Source of the DNA: Candidatus Omnitrophota bacterium
Lineage (GTDB): Bacteria > Omnitrophota > Gorgyraeia > Zapsychrales > Zapsychraceae
DNA length: 64,000 bases
Reading direction: 5' to 3'
Assembly: GCA_015233495.1 (NCBI GenBank)
Contig: JADFXQ010000002.1
Span: 34,390 to 98,389, forward strand
The notes under the pieces were generated by a model. It searched no databases, was not told the DNA's origin, and saw nothing but the letters and a program-made list of their open reading frames with translations. Shown here piece after piece: positions 34,353 to 53,640 of the stretch (the stretch's first letter is position 1; the number at the start of each line of letters is the position of its first letter). The translations under genes were made by a program, and so were the position numbers.

Positions 34353-34465
34353 GCACCATTCGAGAAACAGGCACAAGTCTAAGATATCCGCGTCTGCGTT
34401 GTCGGGGCGCTCCTACTACGGAAATATTGTAAATTTGTTGTGAATCCATTCAAAAAGGAACCTAT

Positions 34466-34984: not shown

Positions 34985-35039
34985 TCAATAACGGGGGAAA
35001 CACAAAGATAATGATCAATTTTTCGTATTTTTTTATTTT

Positions 35040-35200
35040 GCAAAGTCTTAGGTGCGTCCGTTATGCGGCCGCGACAGGAAGACGGTCGTGCTTACTGGGC
35101 ACGACACTTCGTCGCCGCTTCGCTCCGCTCAAAACGCGGCGACTACGGGCGCCCACGAGGGGCGCCCACTACACCATCAATGGTCATCGTTGAGATTCTT
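35040..35200 (+). ncRNA. candidate structured non-coding element (GC-rich, multiple hairpins); strand unknown
   Basis: The only long non-coding stretch in the window. Hairpins: gtcgtgc-ttactgg-gcacgac, gtcgccgc...gcggcgac and gggcgccc-acgag-gggcgccc. The single overlapping ORF (35063-35281) is Arg-rich and non-protein-like. Confidence 0.25.
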
Positions 35201-35206
35201 ATGATA

Positions 35207-35509
35207 GTATTACGGTGTCACACACTTTATTCCATAAGTTATTTGTCTTCAATGAGCATTTCCTTATTTTTTCATAAATAGTCTAAAGGGTTAGGACGAA
35301 GGAGAGAACGTTTTAGTTCGTAAGCATTTGTCTACGGAAAGGCCGTTGGGGGATAATGGTTTTTTAAAAATGCTGTCGGCTCAATTGGGCAAAGATCTAT
35401 TGCCAAAGAAAAAAGGCCCCAAGCCAAAGTCAAAATTTTCGTCGGGATCGATAAAAATGCCCATTGCGAATAAACAACTTACGGAATAAAGTGTGTGTCT
35501 CCGTAATAC
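35207..35509. mobile_element. MITE-like element: ~303 bp bounded by 34-bp imperfect terminal inverted repeats
   Basis: 35207-35240 is the reverse complement of 35476-35509 with 31/34 matches. The interior is AT-rich and non-coding. The flanks are near-identical (tgata / tgatc). Confidence 0.35.
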
Positions 35510-35547
35510 TGATCAATCCCGTCAACCAAACCGGCGAGAAATTGAGG

Positions 35548-35934
35548 AGAATTGTCATGAAATGTTTCAATCATCCGAATGCTGAAGCGGTCGGGGTTTG
35601 CAAAGGCTGTGGCAAAGGATTGTGCCTGGCTTGCGCAAAGGACTCCGAATATGGGCTGTCCTGTGCAGGAAAATGTGAAACGGAACTCAAATTAATGCGG
35701 GATGTGCTGTATTCAAGTGATAAAGCTTATGGGCAATTGAGCCCGATTTATTCGCGGTATACGGCAGTTTTGGGAATGATCGGCGGGATATGTCTTATTC
35801 CCAACATATTTTTGCTGGTGACGGGCAAGAATATGGATTATGCGAGTTTATTGTTTGGGATAGTCATGCTGGTGGCTGCGGTTTGGTATTATAAAATTTC
35901 CAGCAAATTTAAAGTCAAAAATACGAAAAAATAA
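35548..35934 (+). CDS. zinc-ribbon (B-box-like) small membrane protein
   Basis: ATG at 35548 follows GAGGAG. CFNHPNAEAVGVCKGCGKGLCLAC...C...C Cys/His cluster, then two hydrophobic helices. Confidence 0.5.
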   Translation, partial: RIVMKCFNHPNAEAVGVCKGCGKGLCLACAKDSEYGLSCAGKCETELKLMRDVLYSSDKAYGQLSPIYSRYTAVLGMIGGICLIPNIFLLVTGKNMDYASLLFGIVMLVAAVWYYKISSKFKVKNTKK

Positions 35935-36154
35935 ACGGAATGCCTTTCCAGTGAAAAAGAAAATACGGTTTTTTTGATGTTATGGGGGCTTGGCGCTTTG
36001 GTGTCGACGTCTTTGGCTCGGGCGGAGATTACGATTGATATCTCGGACCACTTAAAGCCGGGATTTATGGTGGACCGGACGGATCAGACCACTCAGAAAA
36101 AACGGGGTTTTGAAAAATAAATGTGACAGACACCTTTATTTTCGCGGAGGCAAT

Positions 36155-37147
36155 ATGGAAGGTTTGCGAAATTTTATTATTCGTCTCGGGGCAATTTGGC
36201 TAATCTGGGCAGGGATGTTGATCATTGTCCCTGACTGGGCATTTGCGTATCCGGGATCATTTGCTCCCTCGTCAGGCAAAACTTTGCTTATGATCGGCCA
36301 GGACCGCGATACAATTTCTCAATATGTGCGCGCTACCGGCAACATTCCGGGCGGAACCACGTCGTATACTTCGATTCATAAGTTAGAGGGATTGGATGTG
36401 GCCAATGAATATGGATATGGTGACGGGCCTAAGGACGGGGCCGCTCTTTTAAATAATTATCCTAATTCCGTAATTCAACTCGGCTTCTATATGGTGGATG
36501 AGCTGGCGAACACCATTACCGGGAAATATGATGCTAATTTACGGACATTGGCGCAATGGATTATCAAAGCCAACCGGCCAGTTTATTTGCGCATTGGTTA
36601 TGAATTTGACTTTCCGGTAAATCATTATGACCCGCAAAAATACAAACAGGCTTTCCGCTATGTGGTGGATTTTTTGCGCAAAGAGGGTGTGCGTAATGCG
36701 GCGTATATTTGGCATTCCGAATGTATGCCGCATTCTGGTCAGCAATGGATGGATTGGTATCCGGGCGATGACTATGCAGATTGGTTCGGCGTTTCGCTGT
36801 TTTCTACCCAACAGATCCCGACAGCCGTTGATTTTTTGAAATTAGCCCGAGAGCATCGCAAGCCGTTTATGATATGTGAATCAACGCCCCAGGGTTTGTA
36901 TACTGTTCGCGGAAAAAAAGATTTTTTAGAACATATATTCCGGTTCATCCGCGACCAAAATATTGAAGCTTTCTGTTATATCAATTCCAATTGGGATATC
37001 AAGCCAATGTGGCAAGGCCAGCATTGGGGCGATAGCCGTATCGAACAATATCCCGAGATTAAGGATTTATGGCTAAAAGAAATTACTCAAGGGCGTTATC
37101 TTAAGGCGTCGCCGGATTTGTTTCGCTCGCTCGGTTGGCAGAGATAA
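36155..37147 (+). CDS. secreted glycoside hydrolase, clan GH-A (GH26-like)
   Basis: ATG at 36155 follows GGAGG. Signal peptide (cleavage near AFA|YP). YLRIGYEFD and DWFGVSLF, with KPFMICESTPQG, resemble the GH26 acid/base and nucleophile regions. Confidence 0.5.
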   Translation: MEGLRNFIIRLGAIWLIWAGMLIIVPDWAFAYPGSFAPSSGKTLLMIGQDRDTISQYVRATGNIPGGTTSYTSIHKLEGLDVANEYGYGDGPKDGAALLNNYPNSVIQLGFYMVDELANTITGKYDANLRTLAQWIIKANRPVYLRIGYEFDFPVNHYDPQKYKQAFRYVVDFLRKEGVRNAAYIWHSECMPHSGQQWMDWYPGDDYADWFGVSLFSTQQIPTAVDFLKLAREHRKPFMICESTPQGLYTVRGKKDFLEHIFRFIRDQNIEAFCYINSNWDIKPMWQGQHWGDSRIEQYPEIKDLWLKEITQGRYLKASPDLFRSLGWQR

Positions 37148-37873: not shown

Positions 37874-40800
37874 GTGGATACTATTTTTATTATTAGTATT
37901 TATAAACATATCTTGAAACGCTTGGTGGCTTTTGTTGTTTTGTTGTGTTTTTTGCTTTTAAATGTCCGGCCGCTTGCCGCGGGAGGTTGGCCACAGCCGC
38001 CATCCGTGACCATTCTTGATTCTTCGCGCCCTTTTACGCCATTTTTACTTAAAGGCGTCACCATCGATCCGCGCAATCCTTTGCATTTTGATTTTATCTT
38101 TGATCCCGGTCAATCTTCGATGTCCACGAATCATTCGGAAAAAGAAGCGAGCCGCATCGTCAAATATTTTTTGGCGGCTTTGGCTTTGCCGGAAAAAGAC
38201 CGCTGGGTCAATCTTTCTTTGCAAGAGAGCGGCAGGATAATCCCGGAAATTTTTGGTTTGACTGATATGGGACGGGATATGTTGTCGCTGGATTTTGTCT
38301 TAAAGCAGTTGTCTGCCTCTTTGACTCACCCGGAACAAAAATTAGGGGCGGAGTTTTGGCGCCGCGTTTACGCGAAGGTCAAGAAAGAATACGGCACAGA
38401 TGAAGTTCCGGTTGACTCGGTTACCCGGGTATGGATCGTGCCGGCGCAAGCCGTGGTTTATACGAGCGGGCAAAGCGCTTTTGTGGCTAAAAGCAGTCTT
38501 AAGGTATTAGCGGAAGAAGATTATTTGGCGGGGAAACCGCAAGGACTTAAAGCTTCGGAACCAGATAGCCTCAAAGGTAAAAATACCGCAGCGGTGTTCA
38601 CGGATATATTTCGCGCGATTGTAATCCCGGAGATCGAAAAGGAAGTAAACACAGGTGACGCCTTTGCGCCATTACGGCAGATTTATAACGCCCTGGTCCT
38701 CGCTACCTGGTTTAAACAACAGTGCAAAGCCGGGACGTTGGGAAAGGGCTATTTCGGACAAAAGAAGATTAAAGGAATTGATGTCGCAAAAGACCGGTTT
38801 AAAGAAAAAATTTATGAACAGTATACGGAGTCTCTGAAAAAAGGCGTTTATAATTTCATCAGGGAATATAACGATCCTTTGACGGAGGAAACCGTTTCCC
38901 GTCAATATTATTCCGGCGGGATCGAGTTTACGACAGAGGTTGATCGAAAAGTTCAGTTTTTGCCTTTAGAGAAAGAAGTGTTTCTTGCCGTCCTGAGAAA
39001 ATCGTCTCCGGTGTTAGAAGGCGCTTCAATATATATTGATCCGATAACCAAGGAGGAGAAACTACCGCGTCCCAGGATGTCTTCGCCGGTCAAGCCTCCC
39101 GTATTGGACGACAGTTCTCGGCAAGCGTTAGAGGATTTGGGATTGTCTTATAAAGAATTCCAACGATTGACTTTCGCGCAGACCGGATTCGAAGAAGCAT
39201 TGTTTAACGCTTTTCCGGCTTTAAAATTAAATATATTTTCTTTGCGGACGCAGGAACGTTTTTCCCGCGCGGTGCGGTCGCTGACGCGGGAATTGCGTGA
39301 GAATAGCGTAGAGCCAAAAATCGCTTTAGGGTTCGCGATCCGGTTTGCGATTCAACAATTCTATCAGGATATTTTGCCGGAAAATCTTTCATCGGCGGAT
39401 AACCAACGTTGGAATCAGATTGTCTCTCAATATTTTCGCGATTTTCTTCCCTCCCCGGGCCCGCGGATACCGGAGTATGTAAAACGGAAATACAATTTTG
39501 ACGATAACATGAACGGGAGGGTTGCCCGCGCCTTGATATCGCGAACCCCGGTTGTGTTTAAAGCCGCGAAAAACAGCGATGGATTGTTGACAGATGAGCT
39601 GCGACGGCAGGCCGGCGAGGGCAACATTGATTTGAGCGTTGTTTGGGGACATCCTTCCACGGATGAACGGCAGTTGATCGGCGGCCGCGTGCCTAAGGAG
39701 GGTAAAGACGGTTTGGTTTTCGGTTATGGCGTTTTAACGGAGAAAATTGAAGCCGCGCGCAGTGATCCGGGGAAGAAATATGTTGTGCTGATCAAAAATA
39801 TCGAAGCCGTTGATCCGGAAGTCCGCTTGCTTTTGCAAGAAATGCTGCGGATTTCCGAATTGTCCCATCCGGGTTTGGGTCAGGTATATCTTCCCGAGAA
39901 TTTTCAGATTATTTTCACCATGGCGGAAACCGCGAATATCGAAGACGATTCTTTTTACGACCGGGTCAGCGTAAAAACAGTTCCCGCCGATCTAACTTTC
40001 AAGCCGAAAACCCTTCCCGGTGTAACGGCAGGCGTCACGGCGGAGAATTACCGTTCTGTCTTAACCATTAAAGGGTCAGCGGACAATCCGGTTTTGGTTT
40101 TACCGGGGACACAGATCCGTTTGAACCAGGAATTTCGCGGGATCACTACTGAAAATATGTTTTCTATGATTTATGAAAAAACCGGTCTCTTGCTTGATTT
40201 CGATACGGTTCGGATGTTGGTCGCCATGGCGAACGCAGTCAAGTCCGGAGAACCCATTCTGCGGCTAATTGGTCCTACGGGTGTGGGAAAAACATTCACC
40301 AGCCGCGGATTTGCTTTATTGCGGGGCTCGTCTTTTTTCGCGAACCCGGTAAGTCCCGGCACGGAATTCACGGATTTGATCGGCAGTTTTGAGCAACAAG
40401 ACAATCACTTGTTCGCGTTTAACGGTGAGACCACATTTAAGGAGCGATTGGAAAACGGCGGGGTGGTGGCTTTGAGCGAGCTTAACACTTTAGTTGACAA
40501 TAATCAAAAAGCGAGCTTGGCGTGGTGGTTGACCCAGATCAGCCAGACTACCCCGGACGCCGACGGTTATCGGACGATTTATCTTACCGAAGTTCCGGTT
40601 GCGCCCGGACAACCGCGGCCGAGCATCCGGATTCATCCGCAGTCCTTGATTGTTGTTGATGTGAACCCGGCAGTCTATGAAAGCCGCGCCGCTTTTCCGG
40701 ATGTCTTCGAGGAATCCACGCCCGAATTGACTATTGGTTCGTATATTAGCGCTATTGCCGCGGATAGAGCGGCGGATATCCATAAATTATCTCAAACCGC

Positions 40801-43800
40801 CCGGCAATTTTTAAGCCTGGGTGTTCGGATTCAAGGACGGATGATTCCGGGGATTAGTGATCCGGCACGTTTGGAAGTTTTGGCAGAGGCAATAGGGACT
40901 CGGTATTATGAAGTGGTTGCCGCGTATGATCAGCACAAGTTTGGCGGTAAAGATCAATTTCATTTTTCAAATCGAGAACTTAAACGCATAGCGGAGGATG
41001 TTTTATTATGGATGGAGCGCGGCTTGAGTTCGGACGCGGCGCTCGCGAAAGCCTTTACTCATCATTTGGTGGTGCGCTGGAACGCGCAAAATGACCGGGA
41101 TTATGCCGCGAATTTGATACCTGACGCGGAAGTTACGCTGGGTTTACGGGAGTTTGTGGAACATGAAGTTTTCGTTGCTAATCGGCGGGCGCATATACGG
41201 GTTGCGTCAGGGATAGATACTCAAGTCTTGATCGATGAAATTAAAGACGGCAGGGATGATGTTGTGGTTCGCATTATTAACGTGACCCAGGAATTGGACA
41301 GGTTCAAATTGGAAGGCGGCCGTGTGGTGAATGAAGACGGCCGGGGTTACGCATTTGCCGAGGGGTTGATTGGCCGGATGATTGCACAAGCCGAAACAGC
41401 GCCGGATAAAAAATTTCTTTATGTTTTTGAGAATATCCATAATCTGTGGCCGGAAGACGCGGTGGGTTTGAACGAAATTCTTCAGGAAGGGACATTGTCG
41501 GTGCGGGGCAGGGATACCAAGCGTAGTATTCCGGTAAATGCCGGCATAATGTCCATCAGCCGTCAGGACACGGACTGGACCTGGTCGGAAGCGGAGAAAT
41601 CCCGGTATGTGACCTATGTTTATGAACGGGATACTATTGGCGAACAAATTCAAAACCGGCTTAACGATTATTTTCGCGCTAATGGTCTTGAGCCGGCAGT
41701 CGCGATAGCGTTAAGCCGGATGTTTTGGCGTAGGCTCAAGGTGTCTATAGAATATATTCAGTCGAATAAAGCTTATCAGAACCGGGTGAGCGAGCGCTCC
41801 GCGCTTAAATGTATAGAACTATTTATAAAATTGACCGCGGAAAGACAGGAGGCCGGCGGCTTGAATGTGGCGGATTTGATCAATTTGTTTCGAAAGTCTT
41901 GCGATTTGACGTTTGGGATCAGTGTTCCGCGACGTGTTTTACTGGATAACTCACAGAGTCGGGTTGCAGCTGTTTATCAGAATTTATTTACGGTTTTTGG
42001 CGCTCTGCCGTTTGGCGCGCCGTTGAACGCAGTGACATCGCAAAAATCTGGCGGGGCGGAAACCGCGGCGGGCGAAGCTGAAGCCGGTAATGTAAATTTG
42101 AATGGGGAAATCGCGCTAGCGCTCGCTGCAGCCAAATTAGATTTAGAAATGGCGGATGCAGAAGACCGGTCAAGCGCTTTGCAGAAATTGAAAGAGGTTT
42201 TGGAACTGTCTGAGCATACCGGAGATTTGACGGGAGAGCCAACCGCGGCGCAAGATTTAAAAAATCTTGATGTAGTCAGGGCAGTATTGAAACAGAGTTC
42301 GCATAAGTTTCGGGGAAGTGTTACAGGGTTCGACGTTAATGAACACGGCGTAGTAGTTTGGACTAACTTAGATGAGATATGGATACAAAAAAATGATGGT
42401 AAAATCTTAACGACACGATTTCCTGGCATGATCAGAAATGTAAGGATTTCAGCGGATGAACTGGTGTACATTTCGGGTGAAAATACGGTTTGTGTAATCA
42501 AACAAGATGACCTGAATCATTTGATATCTTATCCCACATATTTAACCACTGATAATGTTGAAGCGATTCAACATTTGGTTATTAGTAATGGAGTAGTTGC
42601 CGCGGCTACCGCAAAAGGGGGGCTTTTATTGTGGGAAAAGGAAGGGAATCAATGGTTAGAAAAGATTAGATGGAAGGATGGTTTTCCAATAGAGCAATTA
42701 TTGTTATCAGGTGAAACTTTAGCGGTGAGGATGCGTAATGGTACTTGTCGCATTTGGCAGAAAAATGGCGGAGCTTGGGAACAGCAATCCGGATTGGTTT
42801 TGGGCCATTCGTCGGATAACCGCTTTAAGAACCGAATTTGGCAAATCGTTGCAAAGGTCAGGAGAATATTTTTGGGGGGAGATAAAGGATATATTCCTGG
42901 AGTGAGTCAGATAGCTTTGTCTGAGACTGAATTCGCGATTTTTACTCATTCCGGAGAAATCATTATGTGGGCAAAAGAAGTCGGGCAATGGCGAGCAGAG
43001 CCGGTTTTACGAACTTCGATTGAACCGGGTGTTTATAGGGTGGGGCATTTTGTTTTGAAAGACAGCGCTTTGGTTTATTGCAGTTTTAATGGGGAAGTAC
43101 GTTTATGGGGAAAACATGGCGACAAATGGATCAAAGAACCATTGATAAAAGACGATACTTTTGGAACGAATGTCCGGTTTTTTGATTTTAATAATGGGGT
43201 CTTGGCTATTGGCGGAAACGTGGGCGCCCTGAAGACTTCATCAGCCGAACCAAAAGGGGGCATCCGCGTCTGGGAACGGGAATTTAGTCTATGGGGACCT
43301 AAATGGCAGCTTCGAATCAAGGAAGATAATTTAGATGGTTTGGCGGATTTGAAGGTATCGAAAGGCGCGGTTCGTGTTCTTGCTGTGACCTTGAATGGGC
43401 AAATATTGAGTTGGGTTAATCAAATTATTAAATGGCAAATCGATCCAGTGAGAACGATAAAGCATTCGGGCCAGATTTTTGGGGCGCAAACGCACTCGGG
43501 TAATTTGCTGGTCGTGACTACCGACGCGGTCGATGTTTATCAACCTGGCATAGGGATAGTTTATGGGACAGCGGTAATGCAGTTTAACGGCGCTGAAGAT
43601 GTGCCTGTGAGTGATTTAGCGGATGAGGTAGTCCGAATGAGTGTAAGAGAACCGCCGCGTCCGGAAATTTTGGCACAGCAAGAAGCGCGGGCAAAACAGG
43701 AGATTATTTTGGGAGACGAAAAAAAGCGAGCGCCGGCTTTGCTTAAATTGGGGGAAACGTTGACTGCGGCGGAACAGGCTGACCATTTGGAAAAGGAAGC

Positions 43801-46800
43801 TGAGGTTGAATCGGCAACATTAGCGGATTTGGATGTGGTGGTTGGGTTGATGAGCGAATCGGGCCACAAGTTCGCGGGCAAAATCAAAGGATTCGAGTCG
43901 AATGAATATGGCGTTTTAGCGTGGAGCGATCAGAAGGAAATTTGGTTGAAGGACGCGAAGGGGGATATTATCGAGTATCAATTTGATCAAGAAATCAGAT
44001 ACGCCAGAATCGCTCGGGATCGATTAGTTGTCGCGGATATTGACAGAATTTATATATGGGAGAAAGATAATGGGGTTTGGCAGCGACGAGCTTTTGTTTC
44101 AGATTTGTTGCCGGGTTATACTAAGGGGCTGGCGATTTCGGATGACGGCGTAGTCGCGGTTTGCAACAGCTACGGACAAATTTATTTATTTAAAAAACAA
44201 AATGGGCAATGGAAAAGCGCGAATAATATAAAAGTATTTTTTGTTATTGGAATGATTTTTGATCGTTTAGAAAAATTTTTGCTTAAAACAAACGTGGGTA
44301 TGGTTTTATGCCGTTTTATTGAGAAATGGGATTTCAGAATGCGCAGTAACCGATCATTTGACAAAATATATTTCCGGGGCGAATTATTGGTGGTAGAAGA
44401 AGTGGTGGATTATGATGGAAAACAGTATTTTGGCGTTTTTGAAAGAAAAGACGGCCGCTGGGCGCGGGTTTTTAAAAGAAAATTCGATGGACCGATTAAA
44501 AATTTTGTTGTTTTGAAAAATGTCTTAACTGTGGTTGATAAGCAAGGTGTGGTTTTTTCAGTTAGCAAATCTGAAGGTAAATGGGTTATGAGAGAGAGGA
44601 GGATAGGATCCGAACAGGTTTTATACATATCTGAGGATGTGTGGTTATCGGCGATAGGTGAAGTGCAGTTGGTATATAAAGATGGGGATCAGCCTGAGCA
44701 ATATCTTTTTTTACCTGTTCGATTCGCGGAGGTTTCTTATGTGGCAAGAGACAAAGATTTTTTAGCTATAGGCACTAAATCCGGATCGATTTATTTATAT
44801 GAGAAAAAAGATTATTTGCCGATAGGAAATACAAGTCGGATGTCTGCATATCTGGAACCGCAAAACAAGTGGAGATTGGCAGGACAGGCAGATAACTTGG
44901 GAACAATTAAGGGATTAAACATTAAAGATGGAAAAGTAATTGTGGCAACGGAAGACGGAAGTGTTAAATGGTTTGGGGTTGGCCGCGGGATGGTTCATGA
45001 AGGAATAGTGCGCAATCTGAATGGCGAGGGCCAGATGGATCAGCGGAGTTTGAGTAAAAAAGTTACCCGGTTAAAGGTGAAATATGAAAGACATAATCAA
45101 ACCGGATCTCCGGAAGATCAAAAGTTTGAGCCGCTGGTTGGCTATGGGAACCGGCCGTTTTATTTTGGCGCGGATCGAGACGGAAATGTATATCTGAATT
45201 TTGACAATCGTTGGTATCGGACGCGGCACACTTTGACGCAGCCCTTTGATCACGCTCTGTTGAGCGGGCCCCGCACAGCGCCCGTCAATGGTCGGCCGAC
45301 GGAGATTTTTCCCGTCCGGTTAGACGCGGTCAAGCATCCGGACAGCCGGCTGGAGCGGTCTTTCACCAAAAAAGATTTTTTGATGACTACCGGGGATTTG
45401 ACGGAAGAAGAAAAAGCGGTTTTACTGAATTTTGAGATATCCCGTCAGGTTGATTTGGAAGGTCCTTCCGGAGCCGGGAAAACGAGCATTGGGAAAGAGA
45501 TCGCGCTTTTGCTCGGCCTGCCGGTTTTTGTGTTGCAGATGCACGGTCAGCGGGATTTATCGGATTTGATCGGTGCCTATCGCGAGGATGAACACGGCCG
45601 GTATTATCTTTCCATGAAACCCAAACCAGTAGCTAAGGATATTTTGGAAGCTGCGGTCGCGCCGGCATTGGTGAGTCGGTTATTGGAAAAAGGGGTTATT
45701 CGCGTTGATGACAAGGATCCAGAGGTTTACTACTGGGGGTATGGGATTTATTCTTTGGTTGATTTGGAAGAGCGTTTGGACGCTTTGGGCGGCATACTCG
45801 GCCAACCGGACAAAAAGGCGCTGCGTGCCTTGGTGCATTATCGTTTGCCGCTTTTGGAGTTTTTGACGTGGGGCGGGATATATATCGTGGATGAAGGCGC
45901 GATCGGGGAACAGGGTCAGGCTTTGATCAACTGGTTTAGCCGGATTGTGAACGGTGATTCCGAAATCAGTATTGATGATTTCACTGGACTCTCAATTCGG
46001 TTTAAGGTGCATACGGATTTTCATTTGATTATCACTAACAATTCTCCGGAAGACACGGCCGGCCGGGAGTTTTTGAAAAGCGAAATCGCGGCTAATATCG
46101 GGTTTATTTATGTCCCGGAAGATGATTCCCCGGACACTATTGAAGGTTTGTTGGAACATTTTTTACAAGATGAATTAGCCGGGACAGATGTCCGGGGAGT
46201 GAAAAGCGCTCTGCGTAAATTGTATTTGGATATCAAAGCGGCAGTGGGAACCAGCATCGGGACAGATAAAAAAGAGCGGTATTATATTTCCAAACGGGAA
46301 ATCCGCCGGGTGGCAGCCCGGCTATTGTTTGAATACAAAAAAGATCCGGAACATTTTGATTTTACTTATAGTTTTTATAAGGCTTTGCGGATTGTGTTTG
46401 AAGCCGCGTTTTCGCATGAACAAGAGAGACAATTCGTGATGGATAAAATTGTCACTCATTTGAAAGAGACATTTCCGGAACGGGCGCAAGCGATTGATCA
46501 ATTTAAAGCCAAGCTCGAGGCGGAAATTAACAATCGTTTTGCTTTTGCTTCAACTGAAAATGAGAAATGGGTTTTATGGGTGGCAGATGAACTTTTAAAC
46601 CAGGATGAGCCGTTGTTATTGATCGACGAACGCGGGGCCAGGACCAGAGCGATGTTAAGGCGATTGCAAGAAAACCGGGGCGCGGTATTCGATCTGGTCG
46701 ACGCGGTTCCGAGTCATACCAGTTTCGAACTTTTAGGAGCGATTCTGCCGGAATTTTCGGATAAGGGGATTGCCAAACCCGGGAGCAGGATGCGTTTTGT

Positions 46801-49800
46801 GAAAGGCCGGCTCATTGAACATCTGTTGACCAAAGAAGAAATGGAGCAGGCCGAGAGCCAAGGCGGAAAAAGTCAAGAGGTCATTGTCTGGATCAGGAAT
46901 ATCGATCAATGGAACGAAGATATCCGCAGTAGTCTCAACGGTCTTTTAGAAAACGGATATATTGACATTGAAACCAGCCGGGGTGAAACGATCCGGTATT
47001 ATAAACCGCGTCACGTGCGATTTATCGCCGGGATCAATGCCCAGAGCGGCGAGGATTTTTCCAGCGCGTTTTTCAACCGCTGGGTGAAAGTCGGTGTCCT
47101 GGCAGAACCGCGGCCGGATCAAAATGTTGACAAGGGAGAATCGGATTTTCAAAAGGTGTTGAGCGATGTTTATGAAATGGATTCCCGCGAGGCCTATTTA
47201 TTCGCGCGTTTGTTTTTAGAGACGTCCCGCCGGGAAGCTCAGAGACAATGGAGCGTTCAGGAGAGTTATGATTTAACTCCCGAGACATTTTACCTGATTG
47301 CCGCGGCGGTGCGGTTGGCGAAACAACAAAGTCCGCAGTGGCAAGCCATTTTGGCCGCGTTTGAACGGCAGAATTATGATCCGCGCCGGGAATCGCCGAC
47401 TAACGCGGCGCAACGCGATCTGGAGGCCGAGTATCGTCGTTTGTCTAACCGGATATTGACCCAGGAAATCGCCCGTTTGTTTTTACCGCGGTTTCGAACC
47501 GCTACTTCCGCTGATACCGGGGACCGCAAGCTGGTGGAAGATAGTATCCGGGCCGTTTTTAACCTTCAGGGGCCGATTACGCTGGATACGACAGATATTG
47601 TTTCACCCGATTTGTCAGCGGTCCCGGACAAGATCCGGCTGTATTACACGACAAAAATCCGGGAATATTTGAGCGCTCTACAGCGGGCGTCGCAGATGAA
47701 TCGCGGTATTGATATGTTGGGCGAATCAGGCGCCGCGAAAACCACTTTGGCCGAACATTTGGCTCACCGCACGGGGAGAAAGTTTTACAAATATCAGTCG
47801 CACGCGAAAAGTGAGGTGACAGATCTGACGATCGAGCTTAGTCAGACGGAAGACGGCGTCATTCAGAAGCGGTACAAGGAATTTTATGCTTGGCTGAAAA
47901 ATGGGAATGCGGTGATTGATTTTGACGAAGCCAACGCGGCGCCGCATATTTTATGGGCGCTGGAAGCGGTCCTGAATGGAGAGAGCGTTATTTATCCGGC
48001 TTTTCCGGGTGAGAAACCCTTTAAGATCGGTGATAATATCACGATTGTTTTTACTCGTAACCCCCTGCGTTATGCCGGCCGGCAACAGATTGAAAAACGG
48101 ATCACAGATAAAATGGTTGTCTTATGGATTGATTTGCCTGATCCGGAGGAAAAAGCGAAAATTGTTCAGACGTTTTACGGGGTTTGGGCCTTAGAGGAAG
48201 AAACGGCAGTCGCGCCGACTGAGGAACTACACCCGAAAGAGAAGGCCAATATCCCACATGAAAGCGATCTGCCGGTTTCGGACACTATTGATATGGACAC
48301 GGATATGAAGGAAGGCCGGGAGATACCGACTATGCAAGATGAAAAAAATTTAACCGAACCACCGGCGGTTTCCACTGCCCCTAAACCCGCGGCGCGCGGG
48401 GTATTCACGCCGGAACTTTATCCGCGGACTCGTCTGGGGGTCTATAATCGATTCGATGCGGCCACAGAAAAATTTTGGCTTGAACGAGGCGAGTATAAAT
48501 CCGTGCCAGTGACTCCGAAGACCGGGAGGGAAAGAACGATCATTGAGGAGACAAGAGATATTTTTCAGGGACAATATATTTTGCGTCTGGGACATGCCTT
48601 CAGCCGCTTGCCGTCGGCTGGAGCGGATATGGAGTTTATTGATTTGAGTGTGAGGGATACCGCGGGTAACTTGCTGGACATTCCGGTCGAGATTACGCGT
48701 GACAGCGCGGACAATTATTATATTCGGCAAAAAGACGCAGATGCTCCGGCAGCTGAGGTTGAAATCCGTTACACAGTCACAGTAGCGAAAGAATATTTCG
48801 GGAAGATTATTCCCAATAACCCGGACATTGGACCGGATATCCGCGAGACCATGACTGTGATGGGTCTCACCCCCAATAACCCGGACATTGGACCGGATAT
48901 CCGCGAGGCCATGACTGTGATGGGTCTCACCGGAAAGGAACGGGATTTCCGGGAGGTTTTATATAAAATGATCGCGTTTACCCGGGATTTTAAATTAGAA
49001 AAAATAACCGCGGAAGGACCAAGTAAATTTTTACGGATTTTAAGATCGGGTGCGGGTGTTTGCCGGCATGGGGCGCAGATATTTGCCGCAACGGCTTGGG
49101 CGATCGGAATGCCGGCCAGGTTAGTCGTTTCCGATATTCATGAATTCGTGGAAGTGGAGGTTCCGGGAATCGGCTGGATGCAAATTGACCTCGGCGGGGG
49201 CGGCGATCCCGCCAACATGGATTTGAGTCCGCTGGCGAATGAGCGGCATAATCCGGCGTATGCCAATGATTTTCCCGAGCCGGAAAATTATAAACAAAAA
49301 AAGGAGTTGTATCGGGACCTATATGAGAAGGCGATGAAGGATCAGGGGATTAAACCGCCGGTATCTCCCCGGCCGAATCGCTCCGGCGAAACGGGCGCGG
49401 CGGATAACGACGCGGCGATAGGCGGTCATTTTGATCCGAAACTGGAAGGGGAGCGCATTGACGCGGCTTTGGCAAATTTGATCCGCGAACAGGGGGCGAC
49501 GCTTAACCAGGATATTGAAAATTCGTTTCAGAGCGGCACGGTCATCGCCGAGCAAGTATTCGAACGGATGAAGCGGGCTATTGAAGCGGGGATCCGTTAT
49601 AAACGGGAAATGAAGAAAAATGGGTTGGAGATTGATCCCGTGGCCTGGATGCTGCGCTTACCGAATCCGTTTGTCAAGCGGACACGGGTTACGAAATTGC
49701 AGACCACCGCAGTGGCGGTTTTGTTTGACGCGAGCGGCAGTATTAGCGTTATCCGTGAGCCGGTCACTTACGCGATCGCCGTTACCGGAAAGAATTTTCA

Positions 49801-50548
49801 GCAATTGAACGATACGGCGCCGCAGCATTTTCATTATGATCTTTCGACTTATACCCATCTTGAACCCGAGACGATTGATAGCATGAGTCAGCGGATGAGC
49901 GCGGAAGATATGGATAAACAATTGATTAAATTAGCGAACTTGATCGGGAACGGCGGCGGCAATGATTTGCAACGGGCAATGTCTTTTAAGCTGACGAATG
50001 AACAAGGTACAGGTTTTCTTGATGCCCGCGAGGCGCGAACCGCGAAAGTGAAATATATGATCGTGTTTACCGACGGAGCTGACGCGGCCATTCGGCAGAA
50101 CGGAAATGATTATGAGCCCCAGGATTCTTTTAAGGAAGTTTTACGAAGATATCGTGACGCCGGGATTGACTTGATTGCCATCGGGATCGGCGCAGGCTCA
50201 AAATATGTGCGGGCGTTCAAAGGCGAGGGACAGCATTTTGTCCAGATTGACGATAAGCATCCCGAAAACATCGCGGAAGCAATCGCGGCTATCGCGGAGC
50301 TGAAATCCAGGGGAATGGGTATTTTGCCGGACGGCGACATCACGCCTTTGATGCAATTCTCGCAAAGCAGTCCGATCAGCGATGCAGACGCGAATAAAGT
50401 CGGCGGTATTGATTTGACCGCGGACTGGGTGACTATTGAAACGCATACCGCGGGCCGCGAAATTCAAATTCCTCGGCTTCCTGAAAATTTTGACTGGTCG
50501 CGAGTGCAGGGATTAAACCCGCTGATTCTGGAATTTTATTCGTATTAA
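37874..50548 (+). CDS. giant secreted multi-AAA+ ATPase / beta-propeller / transglutaminase-like / vWA(MIDAS) protein, 4224 aa
   Basis: A single uninterrupted 12,675-nt ORF. GTG start with no obvious SD; an in-frame TTG at 37913 is an alternative. N-terminal signal peptide (KRLVAFVVLLCFLLLNVRPLAA). Walker A motifs GPTGVGKT (40271), GPSGAGKT (45461) and GESGAAKT (47720), with matching AAA_5-type Walker B regions. Duplicated W-rich repeat module at 42295-45420. TGase core GVCRHG...H...D at 49049-49189. vWA MIDAS motif DASGS at ~49730. Confidence 0.85.
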   Translation: MDTIFIISIYKHILKRLVAFVVLLCFLLLNVRPLAAGGWPQPPSVTILDSSRPFTPFLLKGVTIDPRNPLHFDFIFDPGQSSMSTNHSEKEASRIVKYFLAALALPEKDRWVNLSLQESGRIIPEIFGLTDMGRDMLSLDFVLKQLSASLTHPEQKLGAEFWRRVYAKVKKEYGTDEVPVDSVTRVWIVPAQAVVYTSGQSAFVAKSSLKVLAEEDYLAGKPQGLKASEPDSLKGKNTAAVFTDIFRAIVIPEIEKEVNTGDAFAPLRQIYNALVLATWFKQQCKAGTLGKGYFGQKKIKGIDVAKDRFKEKIYEQYTESLKKGVYNFIREYNDPLTEETVSRQYYSGGIEFTTEVDRKVQFLPLEKEVFLAVLRKSSPVLEGASIYIDPITKEEKLPRPRMSSPVKPPVLDDSSRQALEDLGLSYKEFQRLTFAQTGFEEALFNAFPALKLNIFSLRTQERFSRAVRSLTRELRENSVEPKIALGFAIRFAIQQFYQDILPENLSSADNQRWNQIVSQYFRDFLPSPGPRIPEYVKRKYNFDDNMNGRVARALISRTPVVFKAAKNSDGLLTDELRRQAGEGNIDLSVVWGHPSTDERQLIGGRVPKEGKDGLVFGYGVLTEKIEAARSDPGKKYVVLIKNIEAVDPEVRLLLQEMLRISELSHPGLGQVYLPENFQIIFTMAETANIEDDSFYDRVSVKTVPADLTFKPKTLPGVTAGVTAENYRSVLTIKGSADNPVLVLPGTQIRLNQEFRGITTENMFSMIYEKTGLLLDFDTVRMLVAMANAVKSGEPILRLIGPTGVGKTFTSRGFALLRGSSFFANPVSPGTEFTDLIGSFEQQDNHLFAFNGETTFKERLENGGVVALSELNTLVDNNQKASLAWWLTQISQTTPDADGYRTIYLTEVPVAPGQPRPSIRIHPQSLIVVDVNPAVYESRAAFPDVFEESTPELTIGSYISAIAADRAADIHKLSQTARQFLSLGVRIQGRMIPGISDPARLEVLAEAIGTRYYEVVAAYDQHKFGGKDQFHFSNRELKRIAEDVLLWMERGLSSDAALAKAFTHHLVVRWNAQNDRDYAANLIPDAEVTLGLREFVEHEVFVANRRAHIRVASGIDTQVLIDEIKDGRDDVVVRIINVTQELDRFKLEGGRVVNEDGRGYAFAEGLIGRMIAQAETAPDKKFLYVFENIHNLWPEDAVGLNEILQEGTLSVRGRDTKRSIPVNAGIMSISRQDTDWTWSEAEKSRYVTYVYERDTIGEQIQNRLNDYFRANGLEPAVAIALSRMFWRRLKVSIEYIQSNKAYQNRVSERSALKCIELFIKLTAERQEAGGLNVADLINLFRKSCDLTFGISVPRRVLLDNSQSRVAAVYQNLFTVFGALPFGAPLNAVTSQKSGGAETAAGEAEAGNVNLNGEIALALAAAKLDLEMADAEDRSSALQKLKEVLELSEHTGDLTGEPTAAQDLKNLDVVRAVLKQSSHKFRGSVTGFDVNEHGVVVWTNLDEIWIQKNDGKILTTRFPGMIRNVRISADELVYISGENTVCVIKQDDLNHLISYPTYLTTDNVEAIQHLVISNGVVAAATAKGGLLLWEKEGNQWLEKIRWKDGFPIEQLLLSGETLAVRMRNGTCRIWQKNGGAWEQQSGLVLGHSSDNRFKNRIWQIVAKVRRIFLGGDKGYIPGVSQIALSETEFAIFTHSGEIIMWAKEVGQWRAEPVLRTSIEPGVYRVGHFVLKDSALVYCSFNGEVRLWGKHGDKWIKEPLIKDDTFGTNVRFFDFNNGVLAIGGNVGALKTSSAEPKGGIRVWEREFSLWGPKWQLRIKEDNLDGLADLKVSKGAVRVLAVTLNGQILSWVNQIIKWQIDPVRTIKHSGQIFGAQTHSGNLLVVTTDAVDVYQPGIGIVYGTAVMQFNGAEDVPVSDLADEVVRMSVREPPRPEILAQQEARAKQEIILGDEKKRAPALLKLGETLTAAEQADHLEKEAEVESATLADLDVVVGLMSESGHKFAGKIKGFESNEYGVLAWSDQKEIWLKDAKGDIIEYQFDQEIRYARIARDRLVVADIDRIYIWEKDNGVWQRRAFVSDLLPGYTKGLAISDDGVVAVCNSYGQIYLFKKQNGQWKSANNIKVFFVIGMIFDRLEKFLLKTNVGMVLCRFIEKWDFRMRSNRSFDKIYFRGELLVVEEVVDYDGKQYFGVFERKDGRWARVFKRKFDGPIKNFVVLKNVLTVVDKQGVVFSVSKSEGKWVMRERRIGSEQVLYISEDVWLSAIGEVQLVYKDGDQPEQYLFLPVRFAEVSYVARDKDFLAIGTKSGSIYLYEKKDYLPIGNTSRMSAYLEPQNKWRLAGQADNLGTIKGLNIKDGKVIVATEDGSVKWFGVGRGMVHEGIVRNLNGEGQMDQRSLSKKVTRLKVKYERHNQTGSPEDQKFEPLVGYGNRPFYFGADRDGNVYLNFDNRWYRTRHTLTQPFDHALLSGPRTAPVNGRPTEIFPVRLDAVKHPDSRLERSFTKKDFLMTTGDLTEEEKAVLLNFEISRQVDLEGPSGAGKTSIGKEIALLLGLPVFVLQMHGQRDLSDLIGAYREDEHGRYYLSMKPKPVAKDILEAAVAPALVSRLLEKGVIRVDDKDPEVYYWGYGIYSLVDLEERLDALGGILGQPDKKALRALVHYRLPLLEFLTWGGIYIVDEGAIGEQGQALINWFSRIVNGDSEISIDDFTGLSIRFKVHTDFHLIITNNSPEDTAGREFLKSEIAANIGFIYVPEDDSPDTIEGLLEHFLQDELAGTDVRGVKSALRKLYLDIKAAVGTSIGTDKKERYYISKREIRRVAARLLFEYKKDPEHFDFTYSFYKALRIVFEAAFSHEQERQFVMDKIVTHLKETFPERAQAIDQFKAKLEAEINNRFAFASTENEKWVLWVADELLNQDEPLLLIDERGARTRAMLRRLQENRGAVFDLVDAVPSHTSFELLGAILPEFSDKGIAKPGSRMRFVKGRLIEHLLTKEEMEQAESQGGKSQEVIVWIRNIDQWNEDIRSSLNGLLENGYIDIETSRGETIRYYKPRHVRFIAGINAQSGEDFSSAFFNRWVKVGVLAEPRPDQNVDKGESDFQKVLSDVYEMDSREAYLFARLFLETSRREAQRQWSVQESYDLTPETFYLIAAAVRLAKQQSPQWQAILAAFERQNYDPRRESPTNAAQRDLEAEYRRLSNRILTQEIARLFLPRFRTATSADTGDRKLVEDSIRAVFNLQGPITLDTTDIVSPDLSAVPDKIRLYYTTKIREYLSALQRASQMNRGIDMLGESGAAKTTLAEHLAHRTGRKFYKYQSHAKSEVTDLTIELSQTEDGVIQKRYKEFYAWLKNGNAVIDFDEANAAPHILWALEAVLNGESVIYPAFPGEKPFKIGDNITIVFTRNPLRYAGRQQIEKRITDKMVVLWIDLPDPEEKAKIVQTFYGVWALEEETAVAPTEELHPKEKANIPHESDLPVSDTIDMDTDMKEGREIPTMQDEKNLTEPPAVSTAPKPAARGVFTPELYPRTRLGVYNRFDAATEKFWLERGEYKSVPVTPKTGRERTIIEETRDIFQGQYILRLGHAFSRLPSAGADMEFIDLSVRDTAGNLLDIPVEITRDSADNYYIRQKDADAPAAEVEIRYTVTVAKEYFGKIIPNNPDIGPDIRETMTVMGLTPNNPDIGPDIREAMTVMGLTGKERDFREVLYKMIAFTRDFKLEKITAEGPSKFLRILRSGAGVCRHGAQIFAATAWAIGMPARLVVSDIHEFVEVEVPGIGWMQIDLGGGGDPANMDLSPLANERHNPAYANDFPEPENYKQKKELYRDLYEKAMKDQGIKPPVSPRPNRSGETGAADNDAAIGGHFDPKLEGERIDAALANLIREQGATLNQDIENSFQSGTVIAEQVFERMKRAIEAGIRYKREMKKNGLEIDPVAWMLRLPNPFVKRTRVTKLQTTAVAVLFDASGSISVIREPVTYAIAVTGKNFQQLNDTAPQHFHYDLSTYTHLEPETIDSMSQRMSAEDMDKQLIKLANLIGNGGGNDLQRAMSFKLTNEQGTGFLDAREARTAKVKYMIVFTDGADAAIRQNGNDYEPQDSFKEVLRRYRDAGIDLIAIGIGAGSKYVRAFKGEGQHFVQIDDKHPENIAEAIAAIAELKSRGMGILPDGDITPLMQFSQSSPISDADANKVGGIDLTADWVTIETHTAGREIQIPRLPENFDWSRVQGLNPLILEFYSY
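42295..45420 (+). repeat. internal tandem duplication of a ~520-aa Trp-rich beta-propeller-like module (protein level)
   Basis: Module 1 starts HKFRGSVTGFDVNEHGVVVWTNLDEIWIQKNDGKIL. Module 2 starts HKFAGKIKGFESNEYGVLAWSDQKEIWLKDAKGDII. Both contain recurring phi-W-x-K-x-G-x-W repeats. Confidence 0.6.
48811..48930 (+). repeat. perfect 2 x 60-bp in-frame tandem duplication inside the giant gene
   Basis: 48811-48870 and 48871-48930 differ at only 2 positions. They encode PNNPDIGPDIRE(T/A)MTVMGLT twice. Confidence 0.9.
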
Positions 50549-50621: not shown

Positions 50622-52925
50622 TTAACGCGGCCAGCGGTTTTGAATCTCTTGGTTATGGGCCAGGTAAAAGGCAATCCATTGGTTCACCAGCGATTGGCCT
50701 TGATTCATCCGGTTTTGGTCCAGGGCGCTAAACCCTGCGAGCCGCGTTTGCAATCCTACTAACAGTTTGTCCCGGTATTCATTTCCTAATTGCGGAACAA
50801 TTTTGTTCAATTGATCCGGGTCAACGCTTCTTGCCTCGTAATAATCCAAAGACAGTTTTTCTCGCAGGGCCAATAATGTTGCGATCGAATCAATGGGCGG
50901 GTTGGGCTGTTGCAGTTCAAAGAGGGTGTGGAAAAAATGTTCTTGGCAATTCGCGGCGGCCCGCGTTCCATACGGATCGGGGAGAAAAACCGCGATTTCG
51001 CCATAGTCGCGGGTTTTAATGAAGTGTTGTCCTTGTTCGTCTAAAGTAAGGGGTTGCAGGTCCCGGACAAAAATGATCAAATCCGGACTAAAATTTTTCA
51101 GGGTATATTTTTGGGCGAGCTTATCAGTGATGCGGATGTGTTCAATGCGGAGGTTTTTCCCAAAATCCAAAAGCGGCCAGAGCGGATATTCCCAGCTTTC
51201 TTGACCGGAGATCAGGCCGATATTTTTGCGGCTCTGCTGTTTGACATATTGCGCGGCGAGTTTATATCCGGCGCGCAGTTCCGGCCGCATGAAAAAATAT
51301 TGGTCAGACCGCGGCGTGGCAAAGATGGACGTTTTATGGGTATTGAATAGACTGCGCGTAGGATTTTGTAAAAGCGCCGGCCAGGAGAAAAAAAGGATTA
51401 ACCCCGCGGCCAGCCAAACTAACGCGCGCGTTAGCAAACGGTTAGAGGTTTCCCCGAAACGGGAAACGACGATTCCGAACAGAGGAGAAAAGAGCGCAAA
51501 GAAGACCAGATGAAACCGGCTATGCCAAGGCTGCCATTTGATCGTCAGACAAAAAAGCAGAAAACCGGTTAAAAGACACAGCAGATAGCGCGGCCCAGCG
51601 GGATACAAGCGGCGGGGCAGAAAGCCGAGGAATAAAATAGCGGCAAGTCCGACGAGAAGATGCGCCGGGTTTCCCGCGGTATCTTCATGAAAATTCCGGG
51701 GAGGGATGGCGAAGGGTATGTCTAAGAAAGTGATGCTGGATTCGGAAATGCCGATTCCTAAAGCAGCGTGTATGGACTTGACCGCGCGCCAGAGGGCTTT
51801 ATTTGTTTCCGGAGAACTGGTCCCCAGATGCAAGGCGAGGTTGCGCGCGACATTGGAAACCGCCAGCCGCGGTGACATATTGGTGACGCTGATACCCTGG
51901 ACATCCGGGTGGGGAATAAAAGGGTTGGCGCTGAGTTGGTAATTGCGTATTCCTTGGGGAAGCGAAAAAAATAAAAGACAACAAAATAAAAGGCCAAGAT
52001 TTTTTAATCCGTTTTGGGGCTGTTTTATTTGCAACCGTAACTCCCAAATAACAAAAGGGAGCAGAGCCGGGATAATTGTGCTTTTGGTAAGGCAGCCGAT
52101 TCCCAAGGCCAGACCGGAAAAAAGAAAAGCGTTTCGGCTGTGCCGTTGGCGATATTCCCATAAAAAAGCCAGACTGCTGACTGCCCAAAACGTGACGACA
52201 TAATCGTTTTGGGTTGTGGTGGCTTGCGCAATTCCCATGGGAAGCGTCACGGCAAAAAACGCCGCAGCGATTTGGCCGAAGCGCCCGGCGCCGAGCAAGG
52301 CGGCGATCCAAGCGGCGCCGATCACACTGCCGACCATGCTCGCCCACTGCACAGAATTCGCAAAACGGTCATTGCCGCTGAGGATTTGCAAATGCAAGAT
52401 TATATATTCGGCTCCGGGAGCGGTAAACAGCTGGCGGTTAGAATGCGTGGGGTAAAAAGCGACACTGCGGTTTTGGATCCAGTGCGGGACCCGTGCCATG
52501 TGATACGTCATGGAATCAAAATTATTAGGAGGAGCGGTGAGGGCAATGATGCCGGTCAGGAGGATGGTGACTAAAATAAGGGCCAGGAGAATTTTTTCGC
52601 TTAAAGAATAAGCGGCGATTCTGACCAGAGCCGGGCAGACGGGCGGGGGAGGTCCGTTGGCTTTTTTTAAAAAGGAGGGCGGGGTTCCGAATAAAAAGTA
52701 AAGGTTGATTCCCCCCACCGCAAACCAAAGGACCAGCAGACTCGCCGCGGTGAGGCAATGCAACAGGCTGAGGATTTCTGTGCTGACAACGATCAGACTG
52801 CCGAGAAGCACTGCAGAGCCGAGCAGAGATTTGCGCCAGTCCTCTGCGGGAAGAGCGGAACGCCGGTTAAGGTTGAACGCGGTGAAAATCAGCGATAAAG
52901 GAAGCAAAAGGGCTAACATAGACAA
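50622..52925 (-). CDS. GT-C fold membrane glycosyltransferase (ArnT/PMT-like)
   Basis: 767 aa, N-terminal polytopic TM region, NFDSMTYH loop motif and a large C-terminal soluble domain. Convergent with the giant gene. Confidence 0.55.
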   Translation of the reverse strand: MSMLALLLPLSLIFTAFNLNRRSALPAEDWRKSLLGSAVLLGSLIVVSTEILSLLHCLTAASLLVLWFAVGGINLYFLFGTPPSFLKKANGPPPPVCPALVRIAAYSLSEKILLALILVTILLTGIIALTAPPNNFDSMTYHMARVPHWIQNRSVAFYPTHSNRQLFTAPGAEYIILHLQILSGNDRFANSVQWASMVGSVIGAAWIAALLGAGRFGQIAAAFFAVTLPMGIAQATTTQNDYVVTFWAVSSLAFLWEYRQRHSRNAFLFSGLALGIGCLTKSTIIPALLPFVIWELRLQIKQPQNGLKNLGLLFCCLLFFSLPQGIRNYQLSANPFIPHPDVQGISVTNMSPRLAVSNVARNLALHLGTSSPETNKALWRAVKSIHAALGIGISESSITFLDIPFAIPPRNFHEDTAGNPAHLLVGLAAILFLGFLPRRLYPAGPRYLLCLLTGFLLFCLTIKWQPWHSRFHLVFFALFSPLFGIVVSRFGETSNRLLTRALVWLAAGLILFFSWPALLQNPTRSLFNTHKTSIFATPRSDQYFFMRPELRAGYKLAAQYVKQQSRKNIGLISGQESWEYPLWPLLDFGKNLRIEHIRITDKLAQKYTLKNFSPDLIIFVRDLQPLTLDEQGQHFIKTRDYGEIAVFLPDPYGTRAAANCQEHFFHTLFELQQPNPPIDSIATLLALREKLSLDYYEARSVDPDQLNKIVPQLGNEYRDKLLVGLQTRLAGFSALDQNRMNQGQSLVNQWIAFYLAHNQEIQNRWPR

Positions 52926-52938
52926 AGTCGCGCGGGGA

Positions 52939-53628: not shown

Positions 53629-53640
53629 GGGAACTCGCTT

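Follow-up and report, generated by a model that had tools for sequence, protein, structure and literature searches.

Tandem cassettes with a predicted WD40-like propeller fold between the AAA triads of a midasin-like bacterial protein

The stretch of DNA analysed here (the window) comprises 64,000 nucleotides of contig JADFXQ010000002.1 from a Candidatus Omnitrophota bacterium (assembly GCA_015233495.1), and contains a gene for what appears, from its domain composition, to be a giant single-chain ATPase of the MoxR/midasin type with six AAA domains. Two homologous cassettes lie in tandem in the middle of this protein, between its third and fourth AAA domains (AAA3 and AAA4), and each of them is predicted to fold as a closed WD40-like propeller. 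This duplication is one state of a cassette array whose copy number varies among the members of the host protein family. We consider five points as the established part of this account: that the region is duplicated, that a propeller fold is predicted for its cassettes, that it sits between AAA3 and AAA4, that the cassettes are homologous throughout the family, and that their number varies. The complete reading, in which the propellers of this variable array would additionally serve as peripheral protein-binding platforms, seems to us reasonably probable.

In the numbering used here, residue n of the host protein begins at nucleotide 37874+3(n-1). Residues 1420-1939 (cassette A, 520 residues) and 1940-2417 (cassette B, 478 residues) are homologous in one collinear alignment of 450 columns with 26% identity (BLASTP E=3e-23, the inputs being residues 1421-1960 and 1941-2520). 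The Smith-Waterman score of A versus B is 244, compared with 40 +/- 5.5 and a maximum of 71 in 300 shuffles (z=37), and the C-terminal two thirds, downstream of the obvious N-terminal similarity, still reach z=5.9. The alignment starts in a helical stretch about 57 residues upstream of the HKF motif (AKLDLEMADAEDR... in A, AKQEIILGDEKKR... in B) and ends in a common C-terminal element (GIGIVYGTAVMQFNGAEDVPVSDLADEVVRMSV and GRGMVHEGIVRNLNGEGQMDQRSLSKKVTRLKV, respectively). At the DNA level, where a repeat between the cassettes was sought, only short chance matches were found. The self-alignment of the two halves is thus significant, which upholds the intragenic duplication proposed by the initial annotation, together with the homologous module starts that it had quoted: HKFRGSVTGF at residue 1477 (nucleotide 42302) and HKFAGKIKGF at residue 1998 (nucleotide 43865). 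Its interval, 42295-45420, begins about 55 residues late and runs about 100 residues too far, into the element that precedes AAA4 (residues 2418-2505).

A similarity of this kind could be an artefact, caused by composition or by the periodicity that repeats have in general, with no real duplication behind it. Nothing other than the low identity speaks in favour of this, and it is contradicted by the collinearity over 450 residues, which include the non-repetitive linker and tail, as well as by the recurrence of the same cassette boundaries in relatives. The self-alignment statistics and the profile alignment with the relatives' cassettes described below refute the artefact, to which we give practically no chance.

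The host gene, its cassettes and the AAA domains bordering them are located as follows:
37874..50548, forward strand: host gene, an open reading frame (ORF) of 4224 aa in one uninterrupted reading frame.
41162..41632, forward strand: AAA3, degenerate and without P-loop, the last AAA domain before the array (residues 1097-1253; iterative family hidden Markov model, HMM).
42131..42301, forward strand: helical linker of cassette A, AKLDLEMADAEDR...LKNLDVVRAVL (residues 1420-1476; aligns with the linker of B, helices in the AlphaFold2 (AF2) model).
42302..43456, forward strand: blades of cassette A (residues 1477-1861; motif scan, AF2, Foldseek).
43457..43663, forward strand: last blade strands and beta tail of cassette A, ...VVTTDAVDVYQPGIGIVYGTAVMQFNGAEDVPVSDLADEVVRMSV (residues 1862-1930; tail HMM 3.5e-24).
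43691..43864, forward strand: linker of cassette B, AKQEIILGDEKKR...LADLDVVVGLM (residues 1940-1997; A/B alignment, linker HMM, AF2 blocks with a predicted local distance difference test score (pLDDT) of 78-93).
43865..44887, forward strand: blades of cassette B (residues 1998-2338; AF2, Foldseek, motif scan).
44888..45097, forward strand: last blade strands and beta tail of cassette B, ...VATEDGSVKWFGVGRGMVHEGIVRNLNGEGQMDQRSLSKKVTRLKV (residues 2339-2408; tail HMM 4e-25, pLDDT 90-94).
45125..45388, forward strand: pre-AAA4 element, ...RPFYFGADRDGNVYLNFDNRWYRTRH... (residues 2418-2505; conserved in the family, single-copy, outside the cassettes).
45389..46132, forward strand: AAA4 (residues 2506-2753; P-loop GPSGAGKT at 2530, Walker B IYIVDE at 2669).

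Each cassette is made up of a linker of about 57 residues, predicted to be helical, a predicted WD40-like propeller of about eight (possibly nine) blades, and a beta tail of about 45 residues. This tail element follows every cassette in the relatives, and the linkers share conserved acidic positions (A.D...A.D..R). The region had been described as Trp-rich and built from recurring W-motif units, and both descriptions are accurate: Trp accounts for 2.8% of its residues versus 1.5% of those of the whole protein, all five of the W-motifs originally quoted fall inside it, and the blade motif phi-x-phi-phi-x-[KRE]-x2-4-[GDNSEK]-x-W occurs eight times, against a mean of 0.36 in shuffled sequences, none of 2000 shuffles reaching eight. 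The other 3224 residues of the protein contain this motif twice. Within the protein, the pattern [KRE]-x1-3-G-x-W is confined to this region, which contains it 11 times against an expectation of 1.5. On reading the sequence, eight C-strand motifs can be placed per cassette with a spacing of 37-71 residues (starts at about 1501, 1539, 1584, 1625, 1696, 1742, 1797 and 1844 in A, and at about 2022, 2059, 2103, 2144, 2186, 2227, 2268 and 2309 in B), and a ninth leads into the tail. With its terminal aromatic residue and the turn that comes next, this C-strand motif is similar to the "WD" end of the WD40 repeat.

The fold itself is best seen in the AF2 model of cassette B, which was built on a family alignment of ten cassettes (A3) and consists of four-strand units (pLDDT 73.9, predicted template modelling score (pTM) 0.73). 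Its ten-residue blocks average a pLDDT of 78-94 up to residue 130, that is, over the linker and first blades, and of 90-94 over the tail (model residues 401-460). Foldseek superposes this model, as a closed toroid, on known propellers with probability 1.00 and E-values down to 1e-13. The best matches are eight-bladed, namely Ika8 (6g6o, template modelling (TM) score 0.74), Tako8, ODA16 (5nnz, 0.72) and BamB (0.63-0.70), the TM values being normalised to the target, even though the identity to any of the solved propellers matched is only 8-16%. The model of cassette A, whose alignment held A and B alone, is all-beta with four-strand groups at pLDDT 49 and pTM 0.52, and almost all of the Foldseek matches listed for it are propellers, which also make up the overwhelming majority of those listed for cassette B. 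In both models DSSP assigns successive four-strand groups, 8-9 per cassette. Homologous cassettes of the relatives match the Pfam families WD40_like (3.5e-14), WD40 (6e-10) and Beta-prop_EML_2 (3e-9), and a sequence search of the PDB with the A/B profile gave noise only (L17 E 1.1, WIPI4 E 2.3). Our conclusion, which is a prediction, is that each cassette contains a WD40-like propeller, closed and with eight or possibly nine blades, so that the term propeller-like in the initial annotation is supported by modelling and by homology. At the level of the fold the cassettes would be ordinary WD40-like propellers: the predicted four-stranded blades and closed toroid are like those of eight-bladed propellers such as BamB, ODA16, Fbw7 and the designed Tako8 and Ika8. 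The differences from known propellers are the dedicated helical linker and beta tail, and the insertion inside an AAA+ chain.

The product of the host gene is identical to MBF0531693.1, deposited in GenBank as "MAG: AAA family ATPase [Candidatus Omnitrophica bacterium]" (MAG, metagenome-assembled genome), and matches the Pfam families AAA_5 (5e-27), VWA (1.5e-6) and Transglut_core (1.7e-5). A family HMM locates three AAA domains with a P-loop, at residues 778-955 (GPTGVGKT), 2506-2753 (GPSGAGKT, IYIVDE) and 3259-3426 (GESGAAKT). Walker A is intact in all three of them and Walker B is canonical in two, the first domain having SE for DE. An iterative family HMM adds three degenerate AAA domains, at residues 551-700, 1095-1254 and 2903-3078. 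The order is therefore degenerate, P-loop, degenerate, then the array, and then P-loop, degenerate, P-loop, which agrees with the placement of the duplicated modules between the AAA triads. An HMM made from the P-loop domains misses the degenerate ones, even at relaxed thresholds, and their assignment comes from a second iterative family HMM search and a profile-profile comparison. Seeded on AAA5, the iterative search recruits residues 551-700 and 1095-1254, the degenerate domains recruiting one another (E-values at first inclusion of 3.5e-10 and 1.3e-5 for the window protein), and the degenerate-AAA profile aligns collinearly with the P-loop-AAA profile (hhalign 76%, E 2e-5). The six AAA domains presumably form a ring that is covalently closed.

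Downstream of AAA6, the host ends in a transglutaminase-like (TGL) domain followed by a vWA (von Willebrand factor A) domain with a metal-ion-dependent adhesion site (MIDAS). The TGL domain, of the Cys-His-Asp type, has Cys3730 and the core motifs GVCRHG, DIHEF and QID, and lies within the roughly 500 residues that separate AAA6 from the vWA domain. The latter has an intact DxSxS motif (DASGS at residue 3952) and TDG at about residue 4066. At the other end of the protein, a signal-like N-terminal segment (residues 4-38) is the only hydrophobic segment of the chain. Every full-length member of the family shares such a signal-peptide-like start, with basic residues, a hydrophobic core and an Ala-X-Ala-like site, for example LWA-QS, AYG-QS or AAA-QT. 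The N-termini compared were residues 1-38 of the window protein (37874-37990) and those of the relatives P0005, P0006, P0009, L005, L007 and L008. It would be very odd for a protein of more than 4000 residues that has three P-loop AAA+ domains to be exported.

The relatives comprise large proteins (P) found by an exhaustive search with a profile of cassettes A and B (A1) over 1.84 billion protein representatives, and ten loci (L) from a genome scan. For the propeller part, the exhaustive search returned, apart from the query itself, no match other than one marginal FG-GAP protein (P0008, E 9e-4), and five large proteins were matched over the cassette tail and the pre-AAA4 element only, not over the blades. 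Membership in FG-GAP_2 (PF14312) was considered and rejected, as hhalign gives 10.5% versus P0008 and no Pfam FG-GAP family matches the window cassettes; the likeness is one of motif only, the shared blade motif being of the type V-Y-V-F-E-R-x-x-G-x-W. The cassettes of the relatives were recognised by sequence reading, by HMMs of the linker and tail, and by hhalign. Linker and tail HMMs built on columns of A3 match cassettes of members outside the build (E 1e-5 to 1e-14), and a profile made from 22 of the relatives' cassettes can be aligned with that of A and B, collinearly from linker to tail (hhalign 97.8-99.1%, E 7e-13 to 6e-18). One and the same signature can be read in the blade motif RVYELENGNWILKQTL of L013 and in IYIWEKDNGVWQ, IYLFKKQNGQWK and LLLWEKEGNQW of the window protein.

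Members of the family come from Elusimicrobiota, Planctomycetia and Omnitrophota, three phyla that are represented here by MAGs only. Their common architecture is a signal-like N-terminus, AAA1-3, a number of cassettes, the pre-AAA4 element (41-48% identity across the family, alignment A2), AAA4-6, TGL and vWA. The number of cassettes differs as follows:
2 cassettes: the window protein, P0009 and P0005/L009.
At least 2 cassettes: L012, whose gene is cut by the contig end.
3 cassettes: P0006/L011.
4 cassettes: L007 and L008.
5 cassettes: L013.
At least 5 cassettes: L004, whose gene is cut by the contig end.
1 recognised cassette plus about 500 unassigned residues: L005.

Two MAGs each encode a pair of divergent giant paralogues, L004 and L005 in one Planctomycetia genome and L007 and L009 in one Elusimicrobiota genome, and the cassette counts differ within both pairs (at least 5 versus 1-2, and 4 versus 2, respectively). 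The elusimicrobial P0005/L009 has no TGL domain and carries instead a long acidic, Ser/Gly-rich low-complexity stretch between AAA6 and vWA, which recalls the unstructured acidic region before the MIDAS domain of midasin. Outside the array, an insert of about 65 residues between Walker A and Walker B of AAA4 (residues 2584-2646, 45620-45811) is present in the window protein, P0009, P0004, P0007, L005 and L006 and absent from P0005, P0006, L007 and L008 of Elusimicrobiota, which splits the family into two subgroups. Word-indexed homologue searches gave no match with both cassettes, a single TGL protein with the C-terminal 985 residues, and two fragments without array with the AAA4 alignment, and a metagenome scan found no relatives with patterns derived from the cassettes and only contigs that were already known with the AAA4 alignment. 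PADLOC and NCBIfam returned nothing above threshold for the host, and no assignment to a defence system was made.

The copy numbers and the identities between cassettes allow the history of the array to be outlined. Within one protein, the cassettes are 78-82% identical in L013, 62-67% in L008, 57-60% in L007 and 35-51% in L004, compared with 30-42% between proteins. L007 and L008 have four cassettes each, yet these cluster by protein, which implies concerted evolution or repeated amplification. The pairs of the window protein (26%), P0005 (26%) and L012 (23%) are, judging by these identities, old. The duplication in the window had been called ancient, and this is correct in a relative sense, A and B being as diverged as cassettes of different phyla. 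Furthermore, the two L012 cassettes resemble each other less than each of them resembles a cassette from a different protein, which makes it probable that at least two copies were ancestral. The array thus appears to evolve by tandem amplification and/or homogenisation, and to be kept re-amplified or homogenised. In L013 (ORF residues ~1100-3316) and P0009 (residues 1409-2134) even the blades within a cassette are near-identical, which, together with the 78-82% identity of the five L013 cassettes, points to a very recent amplification at the level of both blade and cassette. Such near-identical blades fit the known renewal of propellers by amplification from single blades, as ascribed to Pereira and Lupas 2022 in a preprint that cites them (bioRxiv 10.1101/2023.11.21.568195). 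Where the L013 cassettes differ from one another, they do so repeatedly at a small number of fixed positions per blade.

What would these propellers do? In the reading that we favour, they would serve at the periphery as protein-binding platforms, which the linkers would tether to the ring after AAA3, and would recruit or hold a partner or substrate for the ATP-driven ring. The MoxR-type ring would remodel this partner, the vWA/MIDAS domain would capture a peptide, and the TGL domain would cleave or bind it, while more cassettes would provide more, or different, binding sites. A role of the cassettes in the recognition or recruitment of a substrate or ligand, already suggested in the initial annotation, is plausible by analogy with three known cases: the MoxR-vWA-TGL trio is a functional unit for which the recruitment, unfolding and cleavage of proteins have been proposed (PMC3495828), MoxR-vWA systems repeatedly come with beta-propeller partners (PMC7159879), and the midasin substrates Rsa4 and Ytm1 are proteins with a ubiquitin-like (UBL) domain plus WD repeats (PMC8837202). 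The linker and tail are conserved across phyla and the propeller cores have diverged beyond what HMMER can link, a combination that would fit conserved attachment parts bearing divergent surfaces. Being the most variable part of the protein, the array is the likeliest candidate for a specificity determinant.

Several points weigh against this reading. Both the function and the structure of the cassettes are deduced from sequence and prediction, and any ligand is putative. Cassette A has a poor model (pLDDT 49), usable only as weak support, that of cassette B has a stretch of low confidence at model residues 182-223 and leaves the blade count at eight or nine, and the window cassettes stay below every Pfam propeller threshold (for example, 20 bits versus a cut-off of 80 for Beta-prop_RIG_2nd). 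A conserved gene neighbourhood hinting at a partner was looked for and not found, as the neighbours differ in every genome examined. It could also be a relaxation of constraint, and not diversification driven by ligands, that made the propeller cores diverge. Finally, were the signal-like N-terminus cleaved and the protein exported, ATP-driven remodelling in the cytoplasm would fail. The main tension is the one between the signal-peptide-like N-terminus apparent in all full-length members and the three intact P-loop AAA domains.

In one alternative, the protein would be exported or exposed at the surface, with the array binding components of the envelope or of foreign cells in a multivalent, adhesin-like manner. 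Copy-number-variable repeat arrays are typical of surface proteins, and the N-termini with Ala-X-Ala-type sites in all full-length members, the single hydrophobic segment of the window protein (4-38) and the location of the gene among glycosyltransferase and envelope-polysaccharide genes would all be in keeping with export. Giant proteins of Omnitrophota have also been discussed as factors of the cell surface and of predation (bioRxiv 10.1101/2023.11.21.568195). However, three intact Walker A motifs, two of them in domains with a canonical Walker B, imply the use of ATP, and the neighbourhood is not conserved in the relatives. ATP is not expected outside the cytoplasm, and we regard this alternative as very unlikely. 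The cassettes could otherwise be structural, acting as spacers or as modules for homotypic oligomerisation or scaffolding that set the geometry or assembly of the machine, with no recognition of substrates. Conservation of the linker and tail but not of the propeller surfaces suits this idea, as do the frequently near-identical copies within one protein, like beads in a rod or lattice, and a homotypic association of propellers has been proposed in MoxR-vWA systems (Kaur et al., PMC7159879). On the other hand, a copy number that varies between close relatives is hard to fit with a fixed geometry, and the recurrence of the L013 differences at the same few blade positions looks more like the tuning of a surface; neither observation is decisive, and we hold a structural role to be rather unlikely.

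The cassettes might also be built-in pseudo-substrates or regulators, in which an acidic motif of the linker or tail would fill the MIDAS of the same protein or dock on its ring. Midasin binds its UBL-plus-WD40 substrates (Rsa4, Ytm1) in trans; the cassettes would then be their mimics in cis, and would gate the ATPase or peptidase. The intact DxSxS of the host MIDAS (DASGS at 3952) and the conserved acidic positions of the linkers (A.D...A.D..R) are compatible with this, and in midasin the MIDAS domain docks on the AAA ring and the substrates are UBL plus WD-repeat proteins (PMC8837202). The argument is nevertheless one of pure analogy, and the linker is predicted to be helical, not UBL-like, so that we see only a slim chance for this option.

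Midasin (Rea1/Mdn1), the eukaryotic mechanoenzyme of ribosome assembly, resembles the host in architecture, since it likewise combines six AAA_5-type domains in one chain with a C-terminal MIDAS vWA domain. Midasin is also the best solved relative of the P-loop AAA domains (phmmer versus PDB, 6e-16, compared with 0.039 for NorQ), a kinship that reflects the ranking of PDB matches only. Contrary to the host, midasin has no propellers between AAA3 and AAA4, and its ring and MIDAS domain are separated by a structured linker of ~1800 aa and an unstructured region of ~517 aa (PMC8837202). The host lacks this long linker and D/E-rich region, about 500 residues with the TGL domain filling that place, and also differs in being bacterial and in having lost the P-loop from every second AAA domain. 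With the MoxR-vWA-TGL systems of the YebA/TgpA type the host shares all three domain types. However, it fuses the products of three genes in one chain, has six AAA domains instead of a homohexamer, and adds the propeller array. Moreover, the YebA-type TGL domain sits among about eight transmembrane helices, whereas the host has its N-terminal hydrophobic segment only. The propeller MoxR-vWA ternary systems bring together a MoxR ATPase, vWA and propellers, as the host does, and their variable components were read by the authors who described them as sensors or effectors of conflict systems (Kaur et al. 2020, PMC7159879). The host, unlike these systems, has full propellers within a single chain, where AAA3 is followed by AAA4, and it shows neither conserved partner genes nor a PADLOC match.

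In literature that was covered incompletely, we found no published description of this family or of a cassette array inside an AAA+ ring. Tandem propellers in one chain are common among WD40 proteins, and a duplication of them is in itself ordinary; it is the setting inside a bacterial midasin-like chain that is unusual. Most prokaryotic AAA+ proteins carry a single AAA+ domain (PMC3791482), and the six-domain single-chain ancestor has been placed "early in eukaryotic evolution" (Zhang and Aravind 2012, PMC3495828). The host family appears to be a rare, midasin-like, single-chain one in which the cassette array varies most, and the occurrence in bacteria of a family that has six AAA domains and a MIDAS domain bears on the origin of single-chain rings, which the literature found treats as eukaryotic. 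A bolder proposal would see here a rapidly re-amplified target-recognition array of variable copy number in an undescribed prokaryotic counterpart family of midasin, in which the WD40 part that eukaryotic clients carry has been built into the motor between AAA3 and AAA4, and whose signal-like N-terminus would direct the protein to the envelope or to another cell. We find this proposal distinctly doubtful, but, if true, it would inform on how single-chain rings of the dynein/midasin type originated and gained specificity. In practical terms, the cassette boundaries permit the expression of single propellers for ligand fishing, and help to recognise further members whose only label is "AAA family ATPase".

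Genes of the envelope-polysaccharide type lie on both sides of the giant gene (30607-37147 and 50622-55355), namely PMT_2 glycosyltransferases, GT2, WecG/TagA, GH26, a hexapeptide acyltransferase and a methyltransferase. Since the neighbours in the relatives are unrelated, no functional link can be inferred from these flanks.

Three minor features were observed within the gene. Just upstream of the TGL domain, at 48812-48931, a 60-nt stretch is duplicated in tandem in perfect register, its copies differing by 1 nt and encoding PNNPDIGPDIRE(T/A)MTVMGLT twice. The corresponding stretch is single in the relatives, and this small duplication appears to be recent. The cassette region (42001-46000) has a GC skew of 0.30, about double the 0.10-0.17 seen elsewhere in the window, and a GC content of 0.45 versus ~0.50 in the rest, both of which probably reflect an amino-acid composition rich in G, V, K, E and W. 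Lastly, an antisense ORF of 174 aa (41977-42501, reverse strand) lies across from where the AAA3 region ends and cassette A begins, and most likely owes its existence to the composition of the long ORF on the sense strand.

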